From: a virus
Lineage: Duplodnaviria > Caudoviricetes
Length of the DNA: 64,000 nt
Strand: one strand, 5' to 3'
IMG/VR virus record: IMGVR_UViG_3300032305_001697
Span: 1,724 to 65,723 of that record
The position numbers and the translations under genes were made by a program. Below, piece by piece: positions 20,664 through 35,139 of the stretch. Every line of letters starts with the position of its first letter. The first letter of the stretch is position 1. The notes under the pieces were generated by a model. It was not told where the DNA came from. It made no database searches and worked only from the letters and a program-made list of their open reading frames with translations.

Positions 20664-21242
20664 TTATTTTAAATATATAACAATTGATTTATTAGTCCAA
20701 ATATCGTCTATTAAATCGCTAATAAAATTCCAATTTCCTCCCGCTAACCCACAACCAAATCTTGGGGCGTGAATTTCTAAGCGAGTATCATTATTAAAAT
20801 TTTTGGCTATAAACATATTAATTTGATTCATACATTTGACTAGTGCTAAATAATTTAATGGTCTATAATTCTTTTTACTAATTGTGCCATTTTGGGCTAT
20901 CATATTAGCAAAAATAAGTCTATGACCAAAAGTAGGATCCTTATATACTTCAACAAATTGTACATATCCTAGATTATTTTTTAAAAAACTAGATCCTAAA
21001 AGGTGATAGTTTTCTTTGACTATTGGGTAGTGCTTAGATAATTCTCCAGCAAATCCAGCACCAAAAGCATTAATATTGTTACAAACATGTGGAACTATAA
21101 TACTTGATCCATTATTTCCTGATCTGGTGATTTTTTCAACATAATCAAAAAGATCTCCACGAATAATTGGAAATGTTTCTTTATTAGATATTGTTTTCAT
21201 GATTATTTCTTTATAAGACTTCCCCATTTTCCTACTGGACAT
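20664..21242 (-). CDS. Macro domain (ADP-ribose processing) protein
   Basis: GDLF, HVCNN..AFGAGFA, PRFGCGLAGGNW. Confidence 0.85.
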   Translation of the reverse strand: MSSRKMGKSYKEIIMKTISNKETFPIIRGDLFDYVEKITRSGNNGSSIIVPHVCNNINAFGAGFAGELSKHYPIVKENYHLLGSSFLKNNLGYVQFVEVYKDPTFGHRLIFANMIAQNGTISKKNYRPLNYLALVKCMNQINMFIAKNFNNDTRLEIHAPRFGCGLAGGNWNFISDLIDDIWTNKSIVIYLK

Positions 21243-21460
21243 TCTTGATCAGCCCAAGCTAATTTATTCATGAATATTTGTTTTTTATTAAGATTGCACC
21301 CACAGAGTAAGCACTGAGAATTCTTATTGTCAAAATCATCACAATCAACACAAATAGAATATCTGTCTAATATTTGTGATTGCGTACTTTTAGGAAATCC
21401 CCAATACATATGCCATATCAAAGAATTTAAAAAGGTAAATATTTTATTTTTAAAGTTCAT
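21203..21460 (-). CDS. Small Cys-rich protein (DUF6171-like)
   Basis: R..IC..C...C..CGC...K......CP..KW. Confidence 0.6.
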   Translation of the reverse strand: MNFKNKIFTFLNSLIWHMYWGFPKSTQSQILDRYSICVDCDDFDNKNSQCLLCGCNLNKKQIFMNKLAWADQECPVGKWGSLIKK

Positions 21461-21896: not shown

Positions 21897-21924
21897 ATCA
21901 TACCTTTGTCTTTGGTTGTGTCAA
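21897..21924 (-). promoter_or_regulatory. Sigma70-type promoter
   Basis: TTGACA-N16-TATGAT. Confidence 0.55.
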
Positions 21925-21940
21925 GAAAAAATATTTCATA

Positions 21941-22000
21941 TTGACATGTGCCGCTTTGATAACTATATATGATACAGGTCGGTGAGTAATATATAACTAT
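21941..22000 (+). repeat. Plus-strand conserved non-coding element, copy 1
   Basis: TTGACA-N14-AACTATATATGATACAGGTCGGTGAGTA; homologous to 59148..59209. Confidence 0.6.
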
Positions 22001-22035
22001 CCATCTCTTCCATGTTCAAATTAATCCATTTTGTA

Positions 22036-22935
22036 TCATAAAAGGTCGTACTTATTTAGTAGTCTACCTTTTTGTGATCTTACAACATAGCCTTTTCTAA
22101 CCATGTATGGTTCAATACTATTTTCTATTGTTTCTATTGAAATTCCAGTTAAAGAAGAAATTGTCTTCAATCCAATTGGAGTTCCTTTAGATTTTGTTAA
22201 TGTTTCAATATATAGTTTATCATACACATCAAAACCATTATGATCAATGCCTTGTATATTAAATATCTCATTAATAGAAGCATCGTCTTTGTTACACAGT
22301 TTATAATTTTTATACCATTGTAGTCTAGCATTCAAGATTCTTGGTGTGCCTTTGCTTCTTTTTGCAATCTCTAGTAGATCATCATCTGATATATTAATAT
22401 CTAGTTTTTGTGTATTCAACTTTGCTAGTTTAGCTAAATCATTATCACTATAAAAAGACAGATGTTCTTTAATTGTGAAACGATCATAGAATGGCTGACT
22501 TAAACTTCCTCCAGTTGTTGTAGCACCAACCAGAGTAAACATTGGAATATCAATAGTTTCTATATTATTTTCTATTGACATACTAAGTTGAAAATCCTCC
22601 ATAATAGGATATAAGAATTCTTCAACTATTTTTGGCAGTCTATGAATTTCATCAATAAATAATATTGATCGTGGACTTATACCCATTAGATACGGCATAA
22701 GATTCTTAACGCTTCTCAGGTTTGCTGCGTTTGCTATGTATAGGTTTACGTTCATTTCGTGTGCTATAGCACCCGCTATGGTGGTCTTACCAAGGCCAGG
22801 AGGGCCGTCTATTAAAACGTGAGGCATCACAGCACCCTCGCTTTTACAACCGCTCACCATGATCTTTAGACGATCAAGAACATTTTGTTGACCAATTATA
22901 TCGTCAAATTTAGTTGGTCTAATAATATTAGCCAT
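22036..22935 (-). CDS. ruvB: Holliday junction branch migration ATPase RuvB
   Basis: IRP..F..IIGQ, GPPGLGKTT, FIDEIHRL, FTLVGATT, DRF, RSKGTPRI, IEPY...GR. Confidence 0.93.
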   Translation of the reverse strand: MANIIRPTKFDDIIGQQNVLDRLKIMVSGCKSEGAVMPHVLIDGPPGLGKTTIAGAIAHEMNVNLYIANAANLRSVKNLMPYLMGISPRSILFIDEIHRLPKIVEEFLYPIMEDFQLSMSIENNIETIDIPMFTLVGATTTGGSLSQPFYDRFTIKEHLSFYSDNDLAKLAKLNTQKLDINISDDDLLEIAKRSKGTPRILNARLQWYKNYKLCNKDDASINEIFNIQGIDHNGFDVYDKLYIETLTKSKGTPIGLKTISSLTGISIETIENSIEPYMVRKGYVVRSQKGRLLNKYDLL

Positions 22936-23341
22936 TCAAACCTCCAATAGACTTTAGTGCTTTTTTAATTAGTGTGGAACAATCTTCTGTTATATTCTTT
23001 ATATAACTAGAAATTAATAATTTGTGTGATTCTTCTTTGGTGAATCCATAATTGACCAGAGTTTCTGTGCTCTTTTCCAAAAGGTCATTTGGTATTGTGT
23101 CTTTCTCTGGTTGCTTAGTTTCTGTATGTTGTGATTCTTCTTTTTCTAAGTAAACAATTCTTATTTTTTTAATTTGTTTTGGTGAAAAAGTAGTTTCACA
23201 ATCACAAACAACTTTAAAGTTTTTTGTTTTAGTCTCTTTGATAGATAACCAGTGGTCACAATTACATTTATTATTAGGGCATCTATATTTTAGATGCAAA
23301 TCGTAATCAATCGGTTTCTGGTTTTTCTTTTTTGTATTCAT
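22928..23341 (-). CDS. Zn-ribbon plus RuvA domain III-like protein
   Basis: CPNNKC...CDC N-terminus; C-terminal ETLVNYGFTKEES...LIKKALK resembles RuvA_C; overlaps the ruvB start. Confidence 0.6.
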   Translation of the reverse strand: MNTKKKNQKPIDYDLHLKYRCPNNKCNCDHWLSIKETKTKNFKVVCDCETTFSPKQIKKIRIVYLEKEESQHTETKQPEKDTIPNDLLEKSTETLVNYGFTKEESHKLLISSYIKNITEDCSTLIKKALKSIGGLNG

Positions 23342-23732
23342 CTTTTACCCAAAAAATAAAATCGTCAATATCGTTGTCGTAACCTGTTTCAATAACGCCC
23401 TTATTAACTAGACCATTCAGTATATTGCTTGTCATTCTATCCCCTAGAGACTGTATAATTTTAGCATATATAGTATCGTTGATTAATTGTCTGCGTTCTT
23501 TAGTTTTTTTGTTTTTTTGATGTTTCATTAACGATTTGATAATTGTTGATGATTCATTAAGTGGTAGTATTTTATTTAATTCTTCTTTTTCTTCAGTTGT
23601 TAATACAATTATATCATCTGATTCTGCGTCTTGATCTTCTTCTTGCTTACCATAAGCATTATATATAATTTTTCTAGTGTGATCTATAAACATATCTAAA
23701 TCTTTTATAACAAACCACTCATCTTTATTCAT
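23307..23732 (-). CDS. Hypothetical protein
   Basis: C-terminal LVNKGVIETGYD...FIFW; similar ending to 35635..36060. Confidence 0.55.
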   Translation of the reverse strand: MNKDEWFVIKDLDMFIDHTRKIIYNAYGKQEEDQDAESDDIIVLTTEEKEELNKILPLNESSTIIKSLMKHQKNKKTKERRQLINDTIYAKIIQSLGDRMTSNILNGLVNKGVIETGYDNDIDDFIFWVKDEYKKEKPETD

Positions 23733-23741
23733 AAATATTTC

Positions 23742-24149
23742 CTAGTTGAGTATTTCAAACAATCCTTTATAATATCGTGGTTGCCTAATAATATGTCCAG
23801 CATGACTCTGTAAATGTAATTCGTATTCTTTTTGAAGTTTGTTATAAACAAAGTATTTGATTTTCCATATTCCTTCGTTCCAATAGTTGTTCCCCAAGTA
23901 CAGGGATTTTTTATCATCCGCTGTACTGGAGAACGAACTATTCACAGGTAACGCAATCGGAGAAAATCCATCTGGAAGTAATGGAGTATTATAGTTAGAT
24001 AGGTTCTTCAACGCATCTTCTATGGCCTCCTTACTTATCCATTTATATTCTATCTTATCAATCAGACTATCCATATATTTCTTGACCCATTCAGTATCTA
24101 TCTGAAAGTAGAATTTATAAGGATCGTCGTTGTCTTCTTTGTCTTTCAT
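23742..24149 (-). CDS. Hypothetical protein
   Basis: 135-aa ORF in the minus-strand gene array. Confidence 0.5.
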   Translation of the reverse strand: MKDKEDNDDPYKFYFQIDTEWVKKYMDSLIDKIEYKWISKEAIEDALKNLSNYNTPLLPDGFSPIALPVNSSFSSTADDKKSLYLGNNYWNEGIWKIKYFVYNKLQKEYELHLQSHAGHIIRQPRYYKGLFEILN

Positions 24150-24230: not shown

Positions 24231-25097
24231 TCAGTTATAACCATCCATATGATTATCTTCATCATGATAATAGGTTTCATCAATATCTTCCTCATCATCA
24301 TTCCAGCCCCAATCATAATCATCATTAAGATCCTCTTCATCATCATCGTAGTCATCTTCAGTAAAGACAGATGAATAAAGAGGCTTGAGAAGTTCGCCTT
24401 GATACTCTCCGACAACTTCATATCGGCAAGTGCGAAGTTTCTCATAGTTGCAATCGCTAGGAACACTCACAACATCAGCAGGATTAATCTTAACGATAAC
24501 AATCTTATCGCCAGATTCAAGACTTCCATAACCGGCCACATAATTCAATGCACCAGCATGAAGTCCATTAGAACAACCTCGACCACGATCATCATCAACC
24601 TTTGATCTCGTCATTTCACAGATTTGACCAACACGATTGTCGAAAACTCCACGATACTTATCCTTATAATCACTCCTGACTGCCTTATAAGCAAGAAAAT
24701 AACCATCTTCAGTAATTGGCAGATGTTCATGCTCAAGGAAATCATAGAGTTCCTTCTGACTCTGCATACTGGGATTACCCATAAGATTATTCAGAAAATT
24801 GACAAGAGGCTGGAAAGGCAGACCCTTACTCATAAACTCCAGAATTCTCTTACTAATAGACCCATGAACAACCTCGCCCTCATAAGTTACCTGACCATTC
24901 TTGATCTCAACAAGACCGTCACTAAAAGTAGCAACTGCCTTCTCAATATCAATCATTTCAATCAACTCGTCAGATGTTGCAGTAGGCAGTGCCTCCAGAA
25001 TCATCTTATAATTAAGATGGTCGGGCAGAACTTGAAAACTCTTGTTGTTCAGCACAACCGTCAGATTACCATCGACAAACATAAACGGAACACTCAT
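24231..25097 (-). CDS. rIIB: rIIB-like protein
   Basis: LPITEDGYFLAYKAV, CSNGLH, VKINPADVVSVP.D...KLRTCRYEV; acidic tail; follows rIIA. Confidence 0.9.
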   Translation of the reverse strand: MSVPFMFVDGNLTVVLNNKSFQVLPDHLNYKMILEALPTATSDELIEMIDIEKAVATFSDGLVEIKNGQVTYEGEVVHGSISKRILEFMSKGLPFQPLVNFLNNLMGNPSMQSQKELYDFLEHEHLPITEDGYFLAYKAVRSDYKDKYRGVFDNRVGQICEMTRSKVDDDRGRGCSNGLHAGALNYVAGYGSLESGDKIVIVKINPADVVSVPSDCNYEKLRTCRYEVVGEYQGELLKPLYSSVFTEDDYDDDEEDLNDDYDWGWNDDEEDIDETYYHDEDNHMDGYN

Positions 25098-25133: not shown

Positions 25134-27794
25134 TTACTTAATCAAACTACTTAATTGGATCTTAAACAAATCAACCTTATCACTATCCATAGTCTCAACC
25201 CATACAGCATTATTTCTCTTACCATAATAATTATCAGCAAATTGAGAGATAGGATTATTTTTGCTGTCCAAATCTCTAAGATTGCCGTTGTGCTGGTTGC
25301 TTCCCATAAGATACTTCAACATCGGGTTCTTGTCAACCTCGACTTTAAGAATTTTCTTCAAGTCTGCCGCTTTAGTCAACTTATACTTGATTGCTTTAGT
25401 CTCAGACTTAAACAATTTAGTATATGCCTCAATATCGTCAGAATGGTCAAACATCTGATGTTGAATATTTATAAGAGTGTTATACTGTACATTTTTCTTC
25501 TTGAGTTCCTTACTATCAAGATTATCAATACCTCGATCCTTGAGCAAAGAGTTAATATGGTCAAAATATTCAGTCTGAGAGAATAGTTTCAGATCAAAAG
25601 TTGCTCTGTGCATAGTATCAGCAAAGAATTCCATTACAAGAAAACTATCAATAACATTGGATAGTTCAGTATTCTTGACATATTTCTTATAGTCAAGACC
25701 AAAAATACTCAACATATGACAAGAGAACTGGCTAACCAGTGTTCCATAATTATAATAATGATTATCGTTATCTCCATCCTTACTGATAAATTCCTTTTTG
25801 TAGAATTCAATCATAGAGTTGTAATCATTGGTATTGTTAAAATAATTCTTAATCTTTGTTGAAAGAATCTTCTTAAACCAAGTGTTAAAGTCAACAAGAT
25901 TGTGTCCTTCACTGGTCATTTTTGCTACAAAATTGCTCTTGATAGCATAAACCTTCACATCTCCAAACAGTCCCTTGATATTCTCATTATCAAATAGCGA
26001 TACAATCTTATTAATCTTGGGAAACTCTGGTGTGCTTTGATAACGAAGAATAGGAACATAAATGATAGAATCACTATCACTCAATTCATCTAGTTCGTCA
26101 CTTGTAAGAGTCTTCAAACTAAGAGCATCGTTATATTCGACACTAAGTTTACCAGAATCCTTAGACTGACCATGAATAAAAAATATATCTTGATCGCTAA
26201 CACTTCCATTACTATTCCTAACTCCAGTTTTACGAGGGCCAGAACTTTGAGTAAGATGCTTATAGTCAGAAACCTTTAACAGATTGTCAGCACCAACATC
26301 GTTAATCAGATCATCAAAACCCTTGTCACTTTGAGTATGATCCTTACCATCCATCATCATATACGCAAAGCAATCATTTTGATTACAATATCGTGTAACG
26401 ATTTTCTTGGCAGTTTCTTCACCCTTAACATCACAAACGAAGAAAGTAATCTTACCATTCTTCTTCTGACTATTCCAGTAAGCATATCCCTTACCTGTCA
26501 GAGTATCGTGATGGATTCTATCTGTGAGAGAAATAAGGCGTCGTGAACGATACCCGCTACTCTTGTAATTAAAAACATACAGACTCTTTCCGGTCTTCAT
26601 CTTATATTCAAGGTCAGAACCACTATTAATATTGTGACTCTTACCATTAGGATCAGTCCACGAAGCACCAACACCCCATCCACCAGACAATTCATTCATC
26701 TGATAATATGTTGTGATAGCCTCAATCTTGGTCTTAGCAGAAGAAATCTTCTTACTAAATTCATCCTTCATCTCAAGATAAATCTCTTGAGTCTTTTGAC
26801 GCAGACTCTTAATTACGCTCTTAGTATACTGCAAACCTTCACGGGAAACGTCCATTTCCAGTTCGCCAATACCAAAATCAAGTTCCAGATAAAGACCAGA
26901 GTTAATGATCTCAGTAACAAAACTCTTCCACGAATCAATATCGGCCTTCTGAAAAGCCCTATTCCACTTCGCAATATGATCTGGTTGATCTTCCTTTTCC
27001 TGACCAATAATCTGAGCGGTCTGAACAGGATACGCAATATTACCCATGATAGCAACAACACCACTATCAATACGATGATAATTATTAGGATAATACTGGG
27101 TATCATTATTGAGTCTGCAAACTCTCCAGCCATTACCGCTAATTACGATATTGGTATTGCTATACTTATGATCTTGCAGATTATTTCCAAGTCCACCCTC
27201 AATAATGGGTTTCATTCGGAAATAATGGAAAATCCTAATAGCCTTACTAGTAAACTCAGTAAAATCATGATTCTTAACAGCAAAACTGATTTCAAGACCA
27301 TTAGCCTCGTCAGTTTCGCAAGTATTAAAAAGATTCAGAGTAGGAACACCACTATCATCAATAGCGGCAATATAGGTATACTTAGTACCATTAAAATAAG
27401 AACTGGTAGTAAAACTTTTGGTATAAGCAAATGGACTCTTACTTCCAAGACCAAGACAACCAACAAAATCATTGCTGTCGTTCTTATTAGAAGCACCGTA
27501 GGTTGTATACAGATTCTCCATATCTACCTGACTAAGACCAGTGCCATAATCACGCACAGTAAAAGAAGGATTAGCAGATGTTGGCAAGATCACCTTAAAG
27601 GGATTCTTATTGCCAGCACTAATATGACTATCATAAGCATTAGTAGATAGTTCACGAATAACTGCCATCACCTTATCAGAATAGAGTGAATCCGAAAGGA
27701 TTTTAAACATTTTGCTAGTCTGAGCGATGGTAAAACCAGATTCGCTACGAACACCAGCACTATGAGTCTCAATAACACGATCTGCCAACTTCAT
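25134..27794 (-). CDS. rIIA: rIIA-like protein (N-terminal GHKL/HATPase domain)
   Basis: KMFKILSDSLYSDK, IRELSTNAYD, RDYGTGL, GLGSKSPFAY, SREGLQY. Confidence 0.9.
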   Translation of the reverse strand: MKLADRVIETHSAGVRSESGFTIAQTSKMFKILSDSLYSDKVMAVIRELSTNAYDSHISAGNKNPFKVILPTSANPSFTVRDYGTGLSQVDMENLYTTYGASNKNDSNDFVGCLGLGSKSPFAYTKSFTTSSYFNGTKYTYIAAIDDSGVPTLNLFNTCETDEANGLEISFAVKNHDFTEFTSKAIRIFHYFRMKPIIEGGLGNNLQDHKYSNTNIVISGNGWRVCRLNNDTQYYPNNYHRIDSGVVAIMGNIAYPVQTAQIIGQEKEDQPDHIAKWNRAFQKADIDSWKSFVTEIINSGLYLELDFGIGELEMDVSREGLQYTKSVIKSLRQKTQEIYLEMKDEFSKKISSAKTKIEAITTYYQMNELSGGWGVGASWTDPNGKSHNINSGSDLEYKMKTGKSLYVFNYKSSGYRSRRLISLTDRIHHDTLTGKGYAYWNSQKKNGKITFFVCDVKGEETAKKIVTRYCNQNDCFAYMMMDGKDHTQSDKGFDDLINDVGADNLLKVSDYKHLTQSSGPRKTGVRNSNGSVSDQDIFFIHGQSKDSGKLSVEYNDALSLKTLTSDELDELSDSDSIIYVPILRYQSTPEFPKINKIVSLFDNENIKGLFGDVKVYAIKSNFVAKMTSEGHNLVDFNTWFKKILSTKIKNYFNNTNDYNSMIEFYKKEFISKDGDNDNHYYNYGTLVSQFSCHMLSIFGLDYKKYVKNTELSNVIDSFLVMEFFADTMHRATFDLKLFSQTEYFDHINSLLKDRGIDNLDSKELKKKNVQYNTLINIQHQMFDHSDDIEAYTKLFKSETKAIKYKLTKAADLKKILKVEVDKNPMLKYLMGSNQHNGNLRDLDSKNNPISQFADNYYGKRNNAVWVETMDSDKVDLFKIQLSSLIK

Positions 27795-34387: not shown

Positions 34388-34783
34388 TTATTTAATTTGC
34401 TCAGTATATAAAACACTATCTAAGTGAGTCCTTTTTGCATTGAACATATACGATAACAAATTACAAATGCTTTGCATATTATCTCCAAGATTACCAGATG
34501 CCATATTGCATGACTGACATAGCCAACCCCTTAGATAGTCATACTCTGGATCATGATCCATATGCCATTTATATGGGGTCTTAAAATTCTCTGGTAATTT
34601 TTTACAAACTGGACAACATGATGGTTTTTCTGGTGCTGTTTTGTGTAATTTTCTCCTAATTTTATTTATTTTTTTAACACATTTTTTACATCTAGAATCT
34701 AAACCATCTTTAAATCTTTTATGTTTAGAAAAAGATTTTTTGTTTTTTCTTTCGTAACATTTAACGCAAATTTTTCTAGTCAT
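34388..34783 (-). CDS. Endonuclease VII-like (putative homing) endonuclease
   Basis: CVKC...CKKC, CPVC...DHD...RGWLCQSCN...G.LGDN; true start probably MTRKIC, 7 nt after the tmRNA 3' end. Confidence 0.75.
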   Translation of the reverse strand: MTRKICVKCYERKNKKSFSKHKRFKDGLDSRCKKCVKKINKIRRKLHKTAPEKPSCCPVCKKLPENFKTPYKWHMDHDPEYDYLRGWLCQSCNMASGNLGDNMQSICNLLSYMFNAKRTHLDSVLYTEQIK

Positions 34784-34790
34784 AATTAAG

Positions 34791-35139
34791 TGGAGGCGTT
34801 GGCATTGAAGCCAAGTCCAGAGTAATTTCAATATAAACTTCTACATCGTTAGTCTATTGTAATTTGGACACTAGACAAACCTAGAAGAAATTATCTTCAT
34901 CAGATCGGTTACGATCATTGTCTATGTTTTCGGGTTAGACTTCCTTATCAGATTTATCTGAGTCAACATGATTGGGTAATAAGGCCCATATAGCCCCACT
35001 CGTACCTAACTAATTAGGCAGCGAGGGCGAGATTTACTTCGCCAATTAACATTTTTTTGAATAACTTTTATACTGGCCTGTTATTCAACCAGTCGATGCC
35101 ATCCATATCTCTATTTACCTGTCGATACCTTTCGCCCCC
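34791..35139 (-). ncRNA. ssrA: tmRNA
   Basis: 5' GGGGGCGAAAGGTATCGAC; 3' GAC-TTGGC-TTCAAT-GCCAA-CGCCTCC-A with a G3:U70 pair; tag ORF 35014..35043 encodes GEVNLALAA*. Confidence 0.9.

Follow-up and report, generated by a model that had tools for sequence, protein, structure and literature searches.

In bacteria, the textbook machine for branch migration is RuvAB, in which the four-fold junction platform of RuvA is regarded as giving the RuvB motor its substrate. The locus described here raises the question of how a RuvB encoded by a phage is brought to DNA when the gene immediately 5' of it encodes a short, cysteine-containing protein in the place where bacterial operons carry ruvA. The window, i.e., the whole 64,000-nt stretch that was analysed (positions 1,724 to 65,723 of IMG/VR record IMGVR_UViG_3300032305_001697), comes from an uncultured T4-like phage of lytic type. 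Based on the letters and open reading frames of the window, a sequence-only reading had proposed that an intact RuvB overlaps an upstream 137-aa gene, that the protein joins an N-terminal Cys cluster to a C-terminus resembling RuvA domain III, and that this new adaptor has re-targeted the motor to another substrate or partner.

The ruvB gene (22036..22935, minus strand) encodes a protein of 299 aa that Pfam and the family alignment identify as an intact AAA+ RuvB motor. The N-terminal P-loop domain, the lid and the C-terminal winged helix were all present and all scored over their cut-offs (RuvB_N, E 1.6e-46, 158.4 bits, cut-off 27; AAA_lid_4, 6.5e-9, 35.9 bits, cut-off 27; RuvB_C, 3.1e-16, 59.5 bits, cut-off 24.7). 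Mean column identity reached 76% in an alignment of 58 family RuvBs, with Walker A and B, sensor 1, the arginine finger and sensor 2 invariant in all 58 and common to three bacterial RuvBs. R286, K289 and R291 of the C-domain hairpin of the phage protein align with R314, R317 and R319 of PaRuvB, which an excerpt of PMC10071043 describes as basic DNA-contacting residues of that hairpin. The presensor-1 β-hairpin, which in E. coli RuvB (L135-L152) protrudes and contacts RuvA according to an excerpt of PMC2628435, is also kept; its tip is 4 residues shorter than in the three bacterial RuvBs, and two phage RuvB sub-clades carry a 5-residue insertion at the tip instead. Compared with bacterial RuvB, the phage protein is about 15 residues shorter at the N-terminus and has no C-terminal tail. 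Judged by these features it looks functional, since it retains all three domains, the invariant catalytic motifs and the basic hairpin residues. It differs from the bacterial RuvBs in being only 36-37% identical to the three aligned, and in being encoded by a T4-like phage without RuvA or RuvC; the bacterial partnership with a RuvA tetramer and RuvC was not found in the four phage records described below. When RuvB was searched for in a 'phages' collection of 50,697 records, there were 98 matches, all below 60% identity (35-39% to the window RuvB). The records that were inspected turned out to be fragments of bacterial chromosomes carrying ordinary ruvA-ruvB operons, and the 98 were discarded as phage RuvBs; the eight genuine RuvAs used below for comparison were drawn from these fragments.

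The upstream gene (22928..23341, minus strand), referred to here as the partner gene, overlaps ruvB, as the sequence-only reading had described, and does so by 8 nt. A ruvB Shine-Dalgarno sequence, GGAGG (22941..22945, minus strand), was read within the 3' end of the partner gene, 5 nt ahead of the ruvB ATG (22935-22933), and the partner TAA occupies 22930-22928. To judge from this layout the partner gene is translationally coupled to ruvB, which would imply roughly matched synthesis of the two proteins. Further upstream, the conserved gene o141 (23307..23732, minus strand) matches nothing in Pfam or PHROG and shares 35 nt with the partner gene, and o135 (23742..24149, minus strand; no Pfam match) is the first gene of an o135-o141-partner-ruvB block that was recognized by synteny across 80 loci. 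The rIIA and rIIB genes lie upstream of o135, and the entire rIIA-rIIB-o135-o141-partner-ruvB block is syntenic. We considered o141 as a candidate for the missing RuvA platform and rejected it (0.2% in hhalign against RuvA, best PDB E 0.14, Atlas scores of at most 0.80).

Within the 80 loci found through RuvB, the partner gene is directly 5' of ruvB in 67, with an overlap or a gap of no more than 1 nt in every case. The linkage is near-obligate from the other direction: ruvB is directly 3' of the partner in 79 of the 80 loci found through the partner, the contig of the other ending within 300 nt, and a partner without ruvB occurred in none of the 79 informative loci. The partner family comprises 480 representative clusters at E<=1e-3 and 260 at E<=1e-10. 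A tblastn search with the partner gave no match in the 50,697 phage records, and no cultured phage in that collection carries it; cellular genomes yielded two matches only, both from short MAG contigs whose phylum assignments differ. Neither the single partner sequence nor the 147-sequence family alignment retrieved a partner-RuvB fusion or any longer form at E<=1e-3, which is weak evidence.

Alignment and AF2 modelling divide the partner into an N-terminal domain (~aa 10-65; 23147..23314, minus strand), a variable and disordered linker (~aa 66-84; 23090..23146, minus strand) and a C-terminal three-helix module (~aa 85-136; 22934..23089, minus strand). The N-terminal domain is a zinc ribbon: two Cys knuckles, C21/C26 and C46/C48, are placed on a small β structure in both the alignment and the model, and H30-W31 is conserved. 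Among 147 diverse family members C21, C26 and C46 never vary and C48 is kept in at least 90%, and in the 48 closer members all four are invariant; the Cys cluster is thus under selection. The domain was modelled confidently (pLDDT 86.7 to about 95), and the linker, whose length and sequence vary within the family, falls below 50 at residues 70-80. Pfam detected neither RuvA_N (E<=0.1) nor HHH_5 in the partner, and the model has the zinc ribbon at the place of the OB domain; the Cys cluster does stand in place of the OB and helix-hairpin-helix domains, as had been proposed.

Residues 1-68 are strongly basic, with a mean net charge of +7.3 (range +3 to +11, 48 members), and this charge suggests that the zinc ribbon may hold DNA. 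The fold of the isolated N-domain offered no functional lead, as its matches were generic zinc ribbons with Z<=3.4: VIA listed 13 chains at Z>=2 with a top Z of 3.4, the ribbons of ZitP, LysW, eS27 and IBR being among the best, and the best Foldseek match had E 1.9. In a concrete form of the re-targeting idea of the sequence-only reading, which would suit the presence of protein-binding (ZitP, LysW, IBR) beside ribosomal RNA-binding ribbons among these low-scoring matches, domain III would sit on RuvB while the zinc ribbon recognizes a protein, for instance the UvsX filament, a single-strand-binding protein, a clamp, Endo VII or the products of o141 and o135, or else a non-junction substrate. 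The conserved presence of o135 and o141 in the same block is in keeping with this, as is the lack of a junction-binding platform both in the partner and in complete relatives. However, the strong positive charge of the ribbon favours nucleic acid.

The C-terminal module could be RuvA domain III or, alternatively, a UBA-like three-helix bundle without any functional link to RuvB, adjacent to it only through a conserved early-gene block. By single-sequence Pfam search the resemblance to domain III was weak, with RuvA_C matching the window partner at E 0.01 and 16.7 bits, under the gathering cut-off of 24. RuvA_C was the most frequent Pfam family among the 147 members: at E<=0.1 it matched 20 (lowest E 3.2e-5) and missed 127, and in one Atlas neighbour cluster it was found on 50% of 52 members. 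Profiles were more sensitive to the relationship. The best PDB match of the partner profile was 1ixs_A, whose E-value went from 1.3e-3 to 1.9e-4 as the profile grew from 48 to 147 sequences, and RuvA accounted for seven of the nine top matches of the 147-sequence profile. Direct comparison of the partner family with the eight genuine RuvAs by hhalign gave 78.7% (E 1.7e-5), the aligned part being the linker plus domain III, in contrast to 0.2% for the neighbouring o141 family used as a control against the same RuvA profile. UBA domains were absent from the PDB-profile and Pfam searches with the partner family.

Structural comparison pointed in the same direction. For the C-terminal module, Foldseek ranks 1-18 were all RuvA (probability 0.84-1.00; best rmsd 1.2-1.7 Å over 47-49 residues), and UBA domains first appeared at rank 28 with probability 0.12-0.21. 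VIA, which is independent of Foldseek, placed RuvA domain III in the top four positions (Z 7.4, 7.3, 6.4 and 6.2) with UBA at 5.1 at most, although a Z below 8 may reflect merely a common arrangement. The module shares its overall topology with UBA-like bundles, which both fold searches found, and in both they ranked under RuvA domain III. E-values and Z-scores for such a small helical module are modest, and a BFVD fold search with the whole partner model gave no match at E<=1e-3. The PDB profile, hhalign, the fold searches and the conserved positions described next make four modest but concordant lines of evidence, by which the module is probably RuvA domain III and not a UBA bundle of generic type.

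Conservation within the family adds to this assignment. In E. coli RuvA, the L167A and L170A substitutions abolish RuvB activity with junction binding unaffected (excerpt of PMC2628435). The partner position equivalent to L167 is L, M, F or I in 147/147 members and that equivalent to L170 is Y, F or L in 143/147; G171 corresponds to an invariant Gly (147/147) and Y172 to F or Y (146/147). The positions matching the E. coli RuvB-activation residues are the best-conserved ones. Like bacterial RuvA, the partner has a flexible linker followed by a module of the same fold, keeps the helix α-7 signature (hydrophobic-x-x-hydrophobic-Gly-aromatic ... Glu), and is encoded immediately 5' of ruvB, as in bacterial ruvA-ruvB operons. 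Unlike bacterial RuvA, it is 137 rather than ~200 aa long and has a basic four-Cys zinc ribbon replacing OB domain I and HhH domain II, and without those domains it lacks any known means of tetramerisation and four-fold junction recognition.

A complex of RuvB with partner residues 82-137 was also predicted. It scored 0.58 (runs 0.50, 0.60 and 0.58), with the best of three controls at 0.00; contact agreement between the runs was 91% or higher, with a partner pLDDT of 82 or more. Of 80 solved complexes 58 pass the mark that this score passes, as do 2 of 110 mismatched pairs; only seven of the 80 but both of those mismatches do so at <=0.60. These counts hold only roughly here because our own alignments were used as input. 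As complexes of RuvA domain III with RuvB have already been solved, the pass may stem from resemblance to them instead of from binding. Isolated RuvA domain III engages RuvB by itself, according to the titles of PDB entries 1ixs and 7x7p. The prediction lends weak support to a docking of partner domain III on the ATPase domain of RuvB.

A chance neighbourhood with no functional link would fit the sub-threshold Pfam score, the middling fold scores, which arise by chance in small helical bundles, the weak support from the predicted complex and the synteny of the whole block. It is hard to reconcile with the lead of RuvA domain III, not UBA, in two independent fold and two sequence-profile searches, with the conservation of the RuvB-activation positions and with the o141 control. 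Furthermore, gene content downstream varies among the loci while the partner-ruvB pair remains overlapped. We therefore regard the absence of any link as very improbable. Two outcomes named as refuting the sequence-only reading, a generic UBA-like bundle or an unconserved gene pair, were checked for and did not emerge: UBA domains ranked behind RuvA domain III in both fold searches, and the gene pair proved to be conserved.

In the other 13 of the 80 loci found through RuvB, an intact and conserved RuvB occurs without the partner, and o141 is directly 5' of ruvB. On a quick RuvB tree these loci are scattered, requiring 6 changes, at least 3 of which are forced by well-supported branches. HMMs of the zinc ribbon and of domain III had no match in six frames of the 13 loci, nor in five whole partner-less contigs (16-31% complete). 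This lack of any partner domain match at the 13 loci indicates that the partner is dispensable or relocatable. The RuvB hairpin is undecayed in them. Two clades pair the RuvB hairpin insertion with L or F at partner position 98; this co-variation was set aside as evidence, given the few events and a counter-example (locus L070).

Dispensability is what a modulator predicts, and instead of loading RuvB the partner might accordingly slow or time it, or serve host takeover, with domain III restraining the phage or host RuvB or competing with host RuvA. That isolated domain III can engage RuvB, as noted above, would suit such a regulator or decoy. Nevertheless, translational coupling implies synthesis roughly matched to that of the phage RuvB, and the gene occurs without phage ruvB in 0/79 informative loci, which would not be expected of a factor aimed at a host protein. 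A conserved, basic and structured zinc ribbon would be needless for a pure decoy. We consider a regulatory or decoy role improbable.

To define the genetic setting in which this RuvB works, recombination genes were inventoried in four records: two 100% complete relatives (G001 and G002), one 88% complete relative (G003) and the window's own record, which is a half-complete genome. The relatives carry a RuvB about 70% identical to that of the window, and it is in them, rather than in the half-complete genome, that the absence of UvsW, RuvA and RuvC is established. RuvA_N and RuvC were each found in 0/4 records, and HHH_5 over its cut-off in 0/4; the sequence-only reading had seen no RuvC in the window, and none was found in the window's record either. 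RecA/UvsX was present in all four records and Endo VII in three. UvsY (PF11056) was found in 0/4, in a search that had no T4 positive control.

UvsW is the usual helicase of T4 for branch migration and fork regression, where the record annotates it as a recombination/repair DNA helicase, and uvsW is counted among the T4 core genes. Neither Helicase_C nor the T4 UvsW protein had a match in any of the four records, and the identical Helicase_C search recovered uvsW in T4. ResIII gave sub-cut-off P-loop matches only, RuvB itself and PhoH among them. RuvB and its partner probably fill the same role as UvsW, in T4-type recombination-dependent replication with UvsX and Endo VII, by different means: the phage RuvB is an AAA+ hexamer with an accessory factor, whereas UvsW is a monomeric SF2 helicase of unrelated fold, and it is missing from the complete relatives together with any Helicase_C domain. 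In the window, an Endonuclease VII-type junction resolvase is encoded at 34388..34831 on the minus strand (Pfam Endonuclease_7, 38.7 bits, cut-off 23.6), not adjacent to ruvB, and is the likely downstream partner in junction processing. The sequence-only reading did not mention this gene.

This inventory bears directly on re-targeting. With UvsW gone and recombinase and resolvase kept, the ordinary job is vacant for RuvB, and in a clade with UvsX and mostly Endo VII and without UvsW, the same job done with a simplified loader is a more economical account than a new target. Of the earlier proposal, the zinc-ribbon and domain III build, the near-exclusive linkage to ruvB and the absence of canonical RuvA and RuvC from complete relatives are supported. 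The weakly supported interface and the 13 partner-less loci weaken the adaptor idea. Re-targeting to another substrate or partner is a further conjecture, and we think it unlikely.

We lean instead towards the partner being a minimal surrogate of RuvA, one that tethers the phage RuvB and activates it to migrate branches. In this scheme, it would be a cut-down RuvA that has kept the linker and the RuvB-docking domain III, with a zinc ribbon replacing the tetrameric OB/HhH platform. Co-made with the phage RuvB via translational coupling, it would dock through domain III on the RuvB ATPase domain while the zinc ribbon, to go by its charge, grips DNA. It would thereby load or anchor the RuvB ring and stimulate it on branched DNA, and the pair may serve recombination-dependent replication and repair by migrating branches or remodelling forks. 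The four-fold junction platform of RuvA has no counterpart in the partner, and the surrogate leaves junction specificity unaccounted for.

A search of the literature outside the supplementary tables of metagenome-mining studies on aquatic T4-like phages found no description of the partner-RuvB pair. The pair suggests a stripped-down way to load the RuvB motor onto DNA. In a large natural family (the 260 representative clusters at E<=1e-10), the docking domain has been kept and the platform swapped for a 60-residue zinc ribbon, and selection has in effect performed the RuvA platform-removal experiment. The family makes testable how far domain III by itself accounts for RuvB activation, whether a tether that is not junction-specific suffices for branch migration, and how modular the adaptors of AAA+ motors are. 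We propose, tentatively, that a RuvB ring might be loaded and driven without a tetrameric platform, via a monomeric zinc-ribbon-linker-domain III adaptor, and that this arrangement might have displaced UvsW in a widespread uncultured T4-like lineage. If true, domain III would be a portable 'RuvB handle', available for evolution to join to different targeting modules. The lineage appears to have exchanged UvsW, a point of interest for the ways in which recombination-dependent replication of phages can be reassembled from other components.

The window covers 64 kb of a viral record that is 65.7 kb long and, as estimated by CheckV, ~48% complete; its GC content is ~31% and the minus strand carries nearly all genes. 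Because rIIA (25134-27794) and rIIB (24231-25097) are both present, the phage is T4-like, and since its rIIA is only ~31% identical, over half of that gene only, to the nearest cultured phages, it belongs to a deep uncultured lineage. The ruvB gene (22036-22935, minus strand) encodes 299 aa with three RuvB Pfam domains, each over its cut-off. As the sequence-only reading had stated, it is overlapped from upstream by a gene encoding a 137-aa protein (22928-23341, minus strand), here called the partner; the overlap measures 8 nt. A GGAGG lies within the 3' end of the partner gene, 5 nt ahead of the ruvB ATG, and an overlap with an internal GGAGG is a standard arrangement for translational coupling.

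RuvB was confirmed to be intact, with the Walker A/B, sensor, and arginine-finger positions invariant across the family, and mean column identity was 76%, versus 41% for the partner family. In the C-domain hairpin, the basic residues occupy the same alignment columns as residues that Pseudomonas RuvB cannot do without (PMC10071043). Compared with bacterial RuvB, the phage protein lacks ~15 N-terminal residues and the C-terminal tail, and the tip of its presensor-1 hairpin is 4 residues shorter, while two phage sub-clades carry a 5-residue insertion at that tip instead.

The AlphaFold2 model of the partner comprises two confident domains separated by a disordered linker: a small beta zinc ribbon (~residues 10-65, pLDDT ~95) and a three-helix bundle (residues 85-136). 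When 48 unique relatives encoded on viral contigs were aligned, P10, C21, C26, W31, C46, C48, K55, G99, and E104 showed no variation; the central part of the protein was variable. Among 147 diverse representatives C21, C26, C46, and G99 remained invariant, which bears out the N-terminal cysteine cluster noticed in the sequence-only reading, and P10, Y19, H30, W31, C48, and E104 were at least 90% conserved. Net charge averages +7.3 in the N-domain (range +3 to +11), making it strongly basic, and the C-domain is approximately neutral.

The resemblance of the C-terminus to RuvA domain III, the RuvB-docking module, was upheld by several analyses that agree with one another. As a single sequence, the partner matched Pfam RuvA_C only weakly (E 0.01, 16.7 bits; cut-off 24). 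The best PDB match of the family profile was 1ixs_A, the chain that represents RuvA domain III in the Thermus complex with RuvB, with E 1.3e-3 for 48 sequences and 1.9e-4 for 147, and RuvA accounted for seven of the nine top matches of the larger profile. RuvA_C was also the commonest Pfam family among members (20/147 at E<=0.1, best 3.2e-5), and one neighbouring ESM-Atlas cluster has it on 50% of its 52 members. Aligned by hhalign to eight genuine RuvAs, taken from bacterial fragments mislabelled as phage, the partner family reached a probability of 78.7% (E 1.7e-5), its linker and domain III falling on the linker and domain III of RuvA; the control, the family of the upstream gene o141, gave 0.2%. 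A generic UBA-like bundle was outranked in both fold searches. Foldseek returned RuvA at ranks 1-18 (best rmsd 1.2-1.7 A over 47-49 residues) and UBA domains from rank 28 with low probability, none of the matches reaching E<=1e-3. In the VIA search, which is independent of Foldseek and covered 48,161 chains, the four highest places went to RuvA domain III (Z 7.4, 7.3, 6.4, and 6.2, against <=5.1 for UBA domains). Because Z below 8 may mean a common arrangement, we take the fold searches as agreeing with the other evidence without deciding the matter.

According to PMC2628435, L167A and L170A in domain III helix alpha-7 of RuvA abolish RuvB activity and leave junction binding unaffected, and the RuvB beta-hairpin L135-L152 contacts RuvA. 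We aligned E. coli RuvA to the partner family HMM and counted residues in the 147 members. L167 corresponds to partner position 95 (L 129, M 13, F 3, I 2), L170 to position 98 (Y 98, F 27, L 18), G171 to position 99 (G 147), Y172 to position 100 (F 113, Y 33), E176 to position 104 (E 139), and L199 to position 129 (L 108, I 32); on this alignment, the positions that RuvA needs for activating RuvB are therefore the best conserved in the phage module.

Synteny also connects the pair. Among the best 80 of 151 RuvB relatives from an IMG/VR scan, the partner lies directly upstream of ruvB in 67 loci, always overlapping or within 1 nt, and domain-only HMMs detected it in the same number. In the remaining 13 an o141 homologue abuts ruvB and the HMMs found no partner (0/13), nor was one found in five whole contigs of these (16-31% complete). 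In a quick tree of RuvB the partner-less loci are scattered; the tree implies 6 changes, and well-supported branches force at least 3 of them. Reciprocally, ruvB directly follows the partner in 79 of the best 80 of 181 partner relatives; in the last locus the contig ends within 300 nt. In the loci examined, then, ruvB can occur without the partner but the partner is never seen without ruvB, the one-way dependence that an accessory factor acting on RuvB should show.

The conserved block reads rIIA-rIIB-(variable)-o135-o141-partner-ruvB, and the genes downstream of ruvB vary. Two of its members, o141 (23307-23732) and o135 (23742-24149), are conserved with function unassigned and have no Pfam or PHROG match; for o141, searches of its profile against PDB and RuvA and of the Atlas gave nothing usable, and a faint MarR-type match of its conserved C-terminal half (AdcR, E 0.56) is not evidence. 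Downstream of ruvB lie genes for a 192-aa protein whose PHROG is annotated as phosphatase (20664-21242; phrog_335, E 3e-23) and an 85-aa Cys-rich protein (21203-21460; phrog_13558, unknown function), the former overlapping the 3' end of the latter; both recur there in several relatives. In two relatives that share 99% identity with the window (L001, L002), ruvB and the o74 gene are separated by a ~2.2-kb cassette, which the window cleanly lacks, with flanks aligning across the deletion (window 21902-22035 versus L001:3872-6011). The cassette holds a 102-aa ORF and genes for a 333-aa actin-like protein (L001 copy: Pfam Volactin E 1.7e-64 and a weak MreB match) and a 258-aa trypsin-like protease; many other loci have ORFs of 332-334 aa downstream of ruvB, which may be the same actin-like gene.

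Searched against 1.84 billion representatives, the partner profile matched 480 clusters at E<=1e-3, of which 260 remained at a threshold of E<=1e-10 and 117 at E<=1e-30. All of the best 150 were full-length matches of 105-184 aa. Sources name it 'hypothetical protein', with a precomputed Pfam domain on none. A search of 185,579 species genomes showed it to be essentially absent there (two matches only, on short MAG contigs), and no longer fused forms were found, an absence of little weight. The full-text literature searched describes no pairing of a phage RuvB with a zinc-ribbon/domain-III protein; supplementary gene tables of metagenome-mining studies, outside this search, could list this RuvB. 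Apparent RuvB matches in the 'phages' collection are mostly contamination or mislabelling, because many of the records (H1-H33, e.g., L085 and L086) are bacterial chromosome fragments, one with purL-dgt-ruvA-ruvB-tolQ and another with rnhB-ruvA-ruvB.

Complex prediction of RuvB with partner residues 82-137, both as alignments, lent weak support to binding: the score was 0.58 (runs 0.50/0.60/0.58) against 0.00 for the best of three controls, with at least 91% of contacts shared between runs and partner pLDDT at least 82. In calibration, the mark was reached by 58/80 solved complexes and 2/110 mismatched pairs, and scores <=0.60 covered only 7 of the 80 and both passing mismatches; these counts apply only roughly here, because the alignments submitted for RuvB and the partner were our own. 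Since RuvA-domain-III:RuvB complexes are already solved, the pass may reflect likeness rather than binding. Published work describes one RuvA domain III bound per RuvB subunit and RuvB stimulation that needs RuvA and junction DNA (PMC10071043), and a RuvB:RuvA stoichiometry of 6:4 (bioRxiv 10.1101/2022.09.22.509074).

On balance, we lean towards the partner being a cut-down RuvA that loads RuvB and stimulates it in branch migration or fork remodelling. Domain III would dock on RuvB, the flexible linker would give reach, and the basic zinc ribbon would hold DNA. Unlike in RuvA, nothing in the partner replaces the four-fold platform, and the cut-down-RuvA reading therefore leaves junction specificity unexplained. 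The sequence-only reading had proposed that a new adaptor re-targets RuvB; this is supported in part, in that its domain III architecture and RuvB linkage stand. Among the rival readings, a protein-targeting adaptor is in our judgement unlikely, a regulator or decoy quite improbable, and the lack of any functional link very improbable.

The recombination gene inventory covered four records: that of the window itself, those of two relatives at 100% completeness (178 and 152 kb), and that of a third relative at 88%. RuvA_N, RuvC, HHH_5 over its cut-off, Helicase_C, and matches to a T4 UvsW query were found in 0/4, in line with the earlier remark that the window holds no RuvC and extending it to ruvA and to the three relatives. 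ResIII gave only sub-cut-off P-loop matches, and UvsY (PF11056) was not detected in the clade in a search run without a control. RecA/UvsX was present in 4/4 records and Endonuclease VII in 3/4 (34388-34831 in the window). The record without it, the 178-kb G001, is classed by IMG/VR as a provirus and may have another resolvase or include non-phage flanks. The clade therefore has a recombinase and a resolvase, the latter role probably being filled by Endonuclease VII. UvsW is one of the T4 core genes, and the Helicase_C search recovers it in T4; this T4-like clade (G001 and G002, with G003 88% complete) appears to lack UvsW or any Helicase_C SF2 helicase. RuvB with its partner is the clade's only recognisable branch-migration motor.
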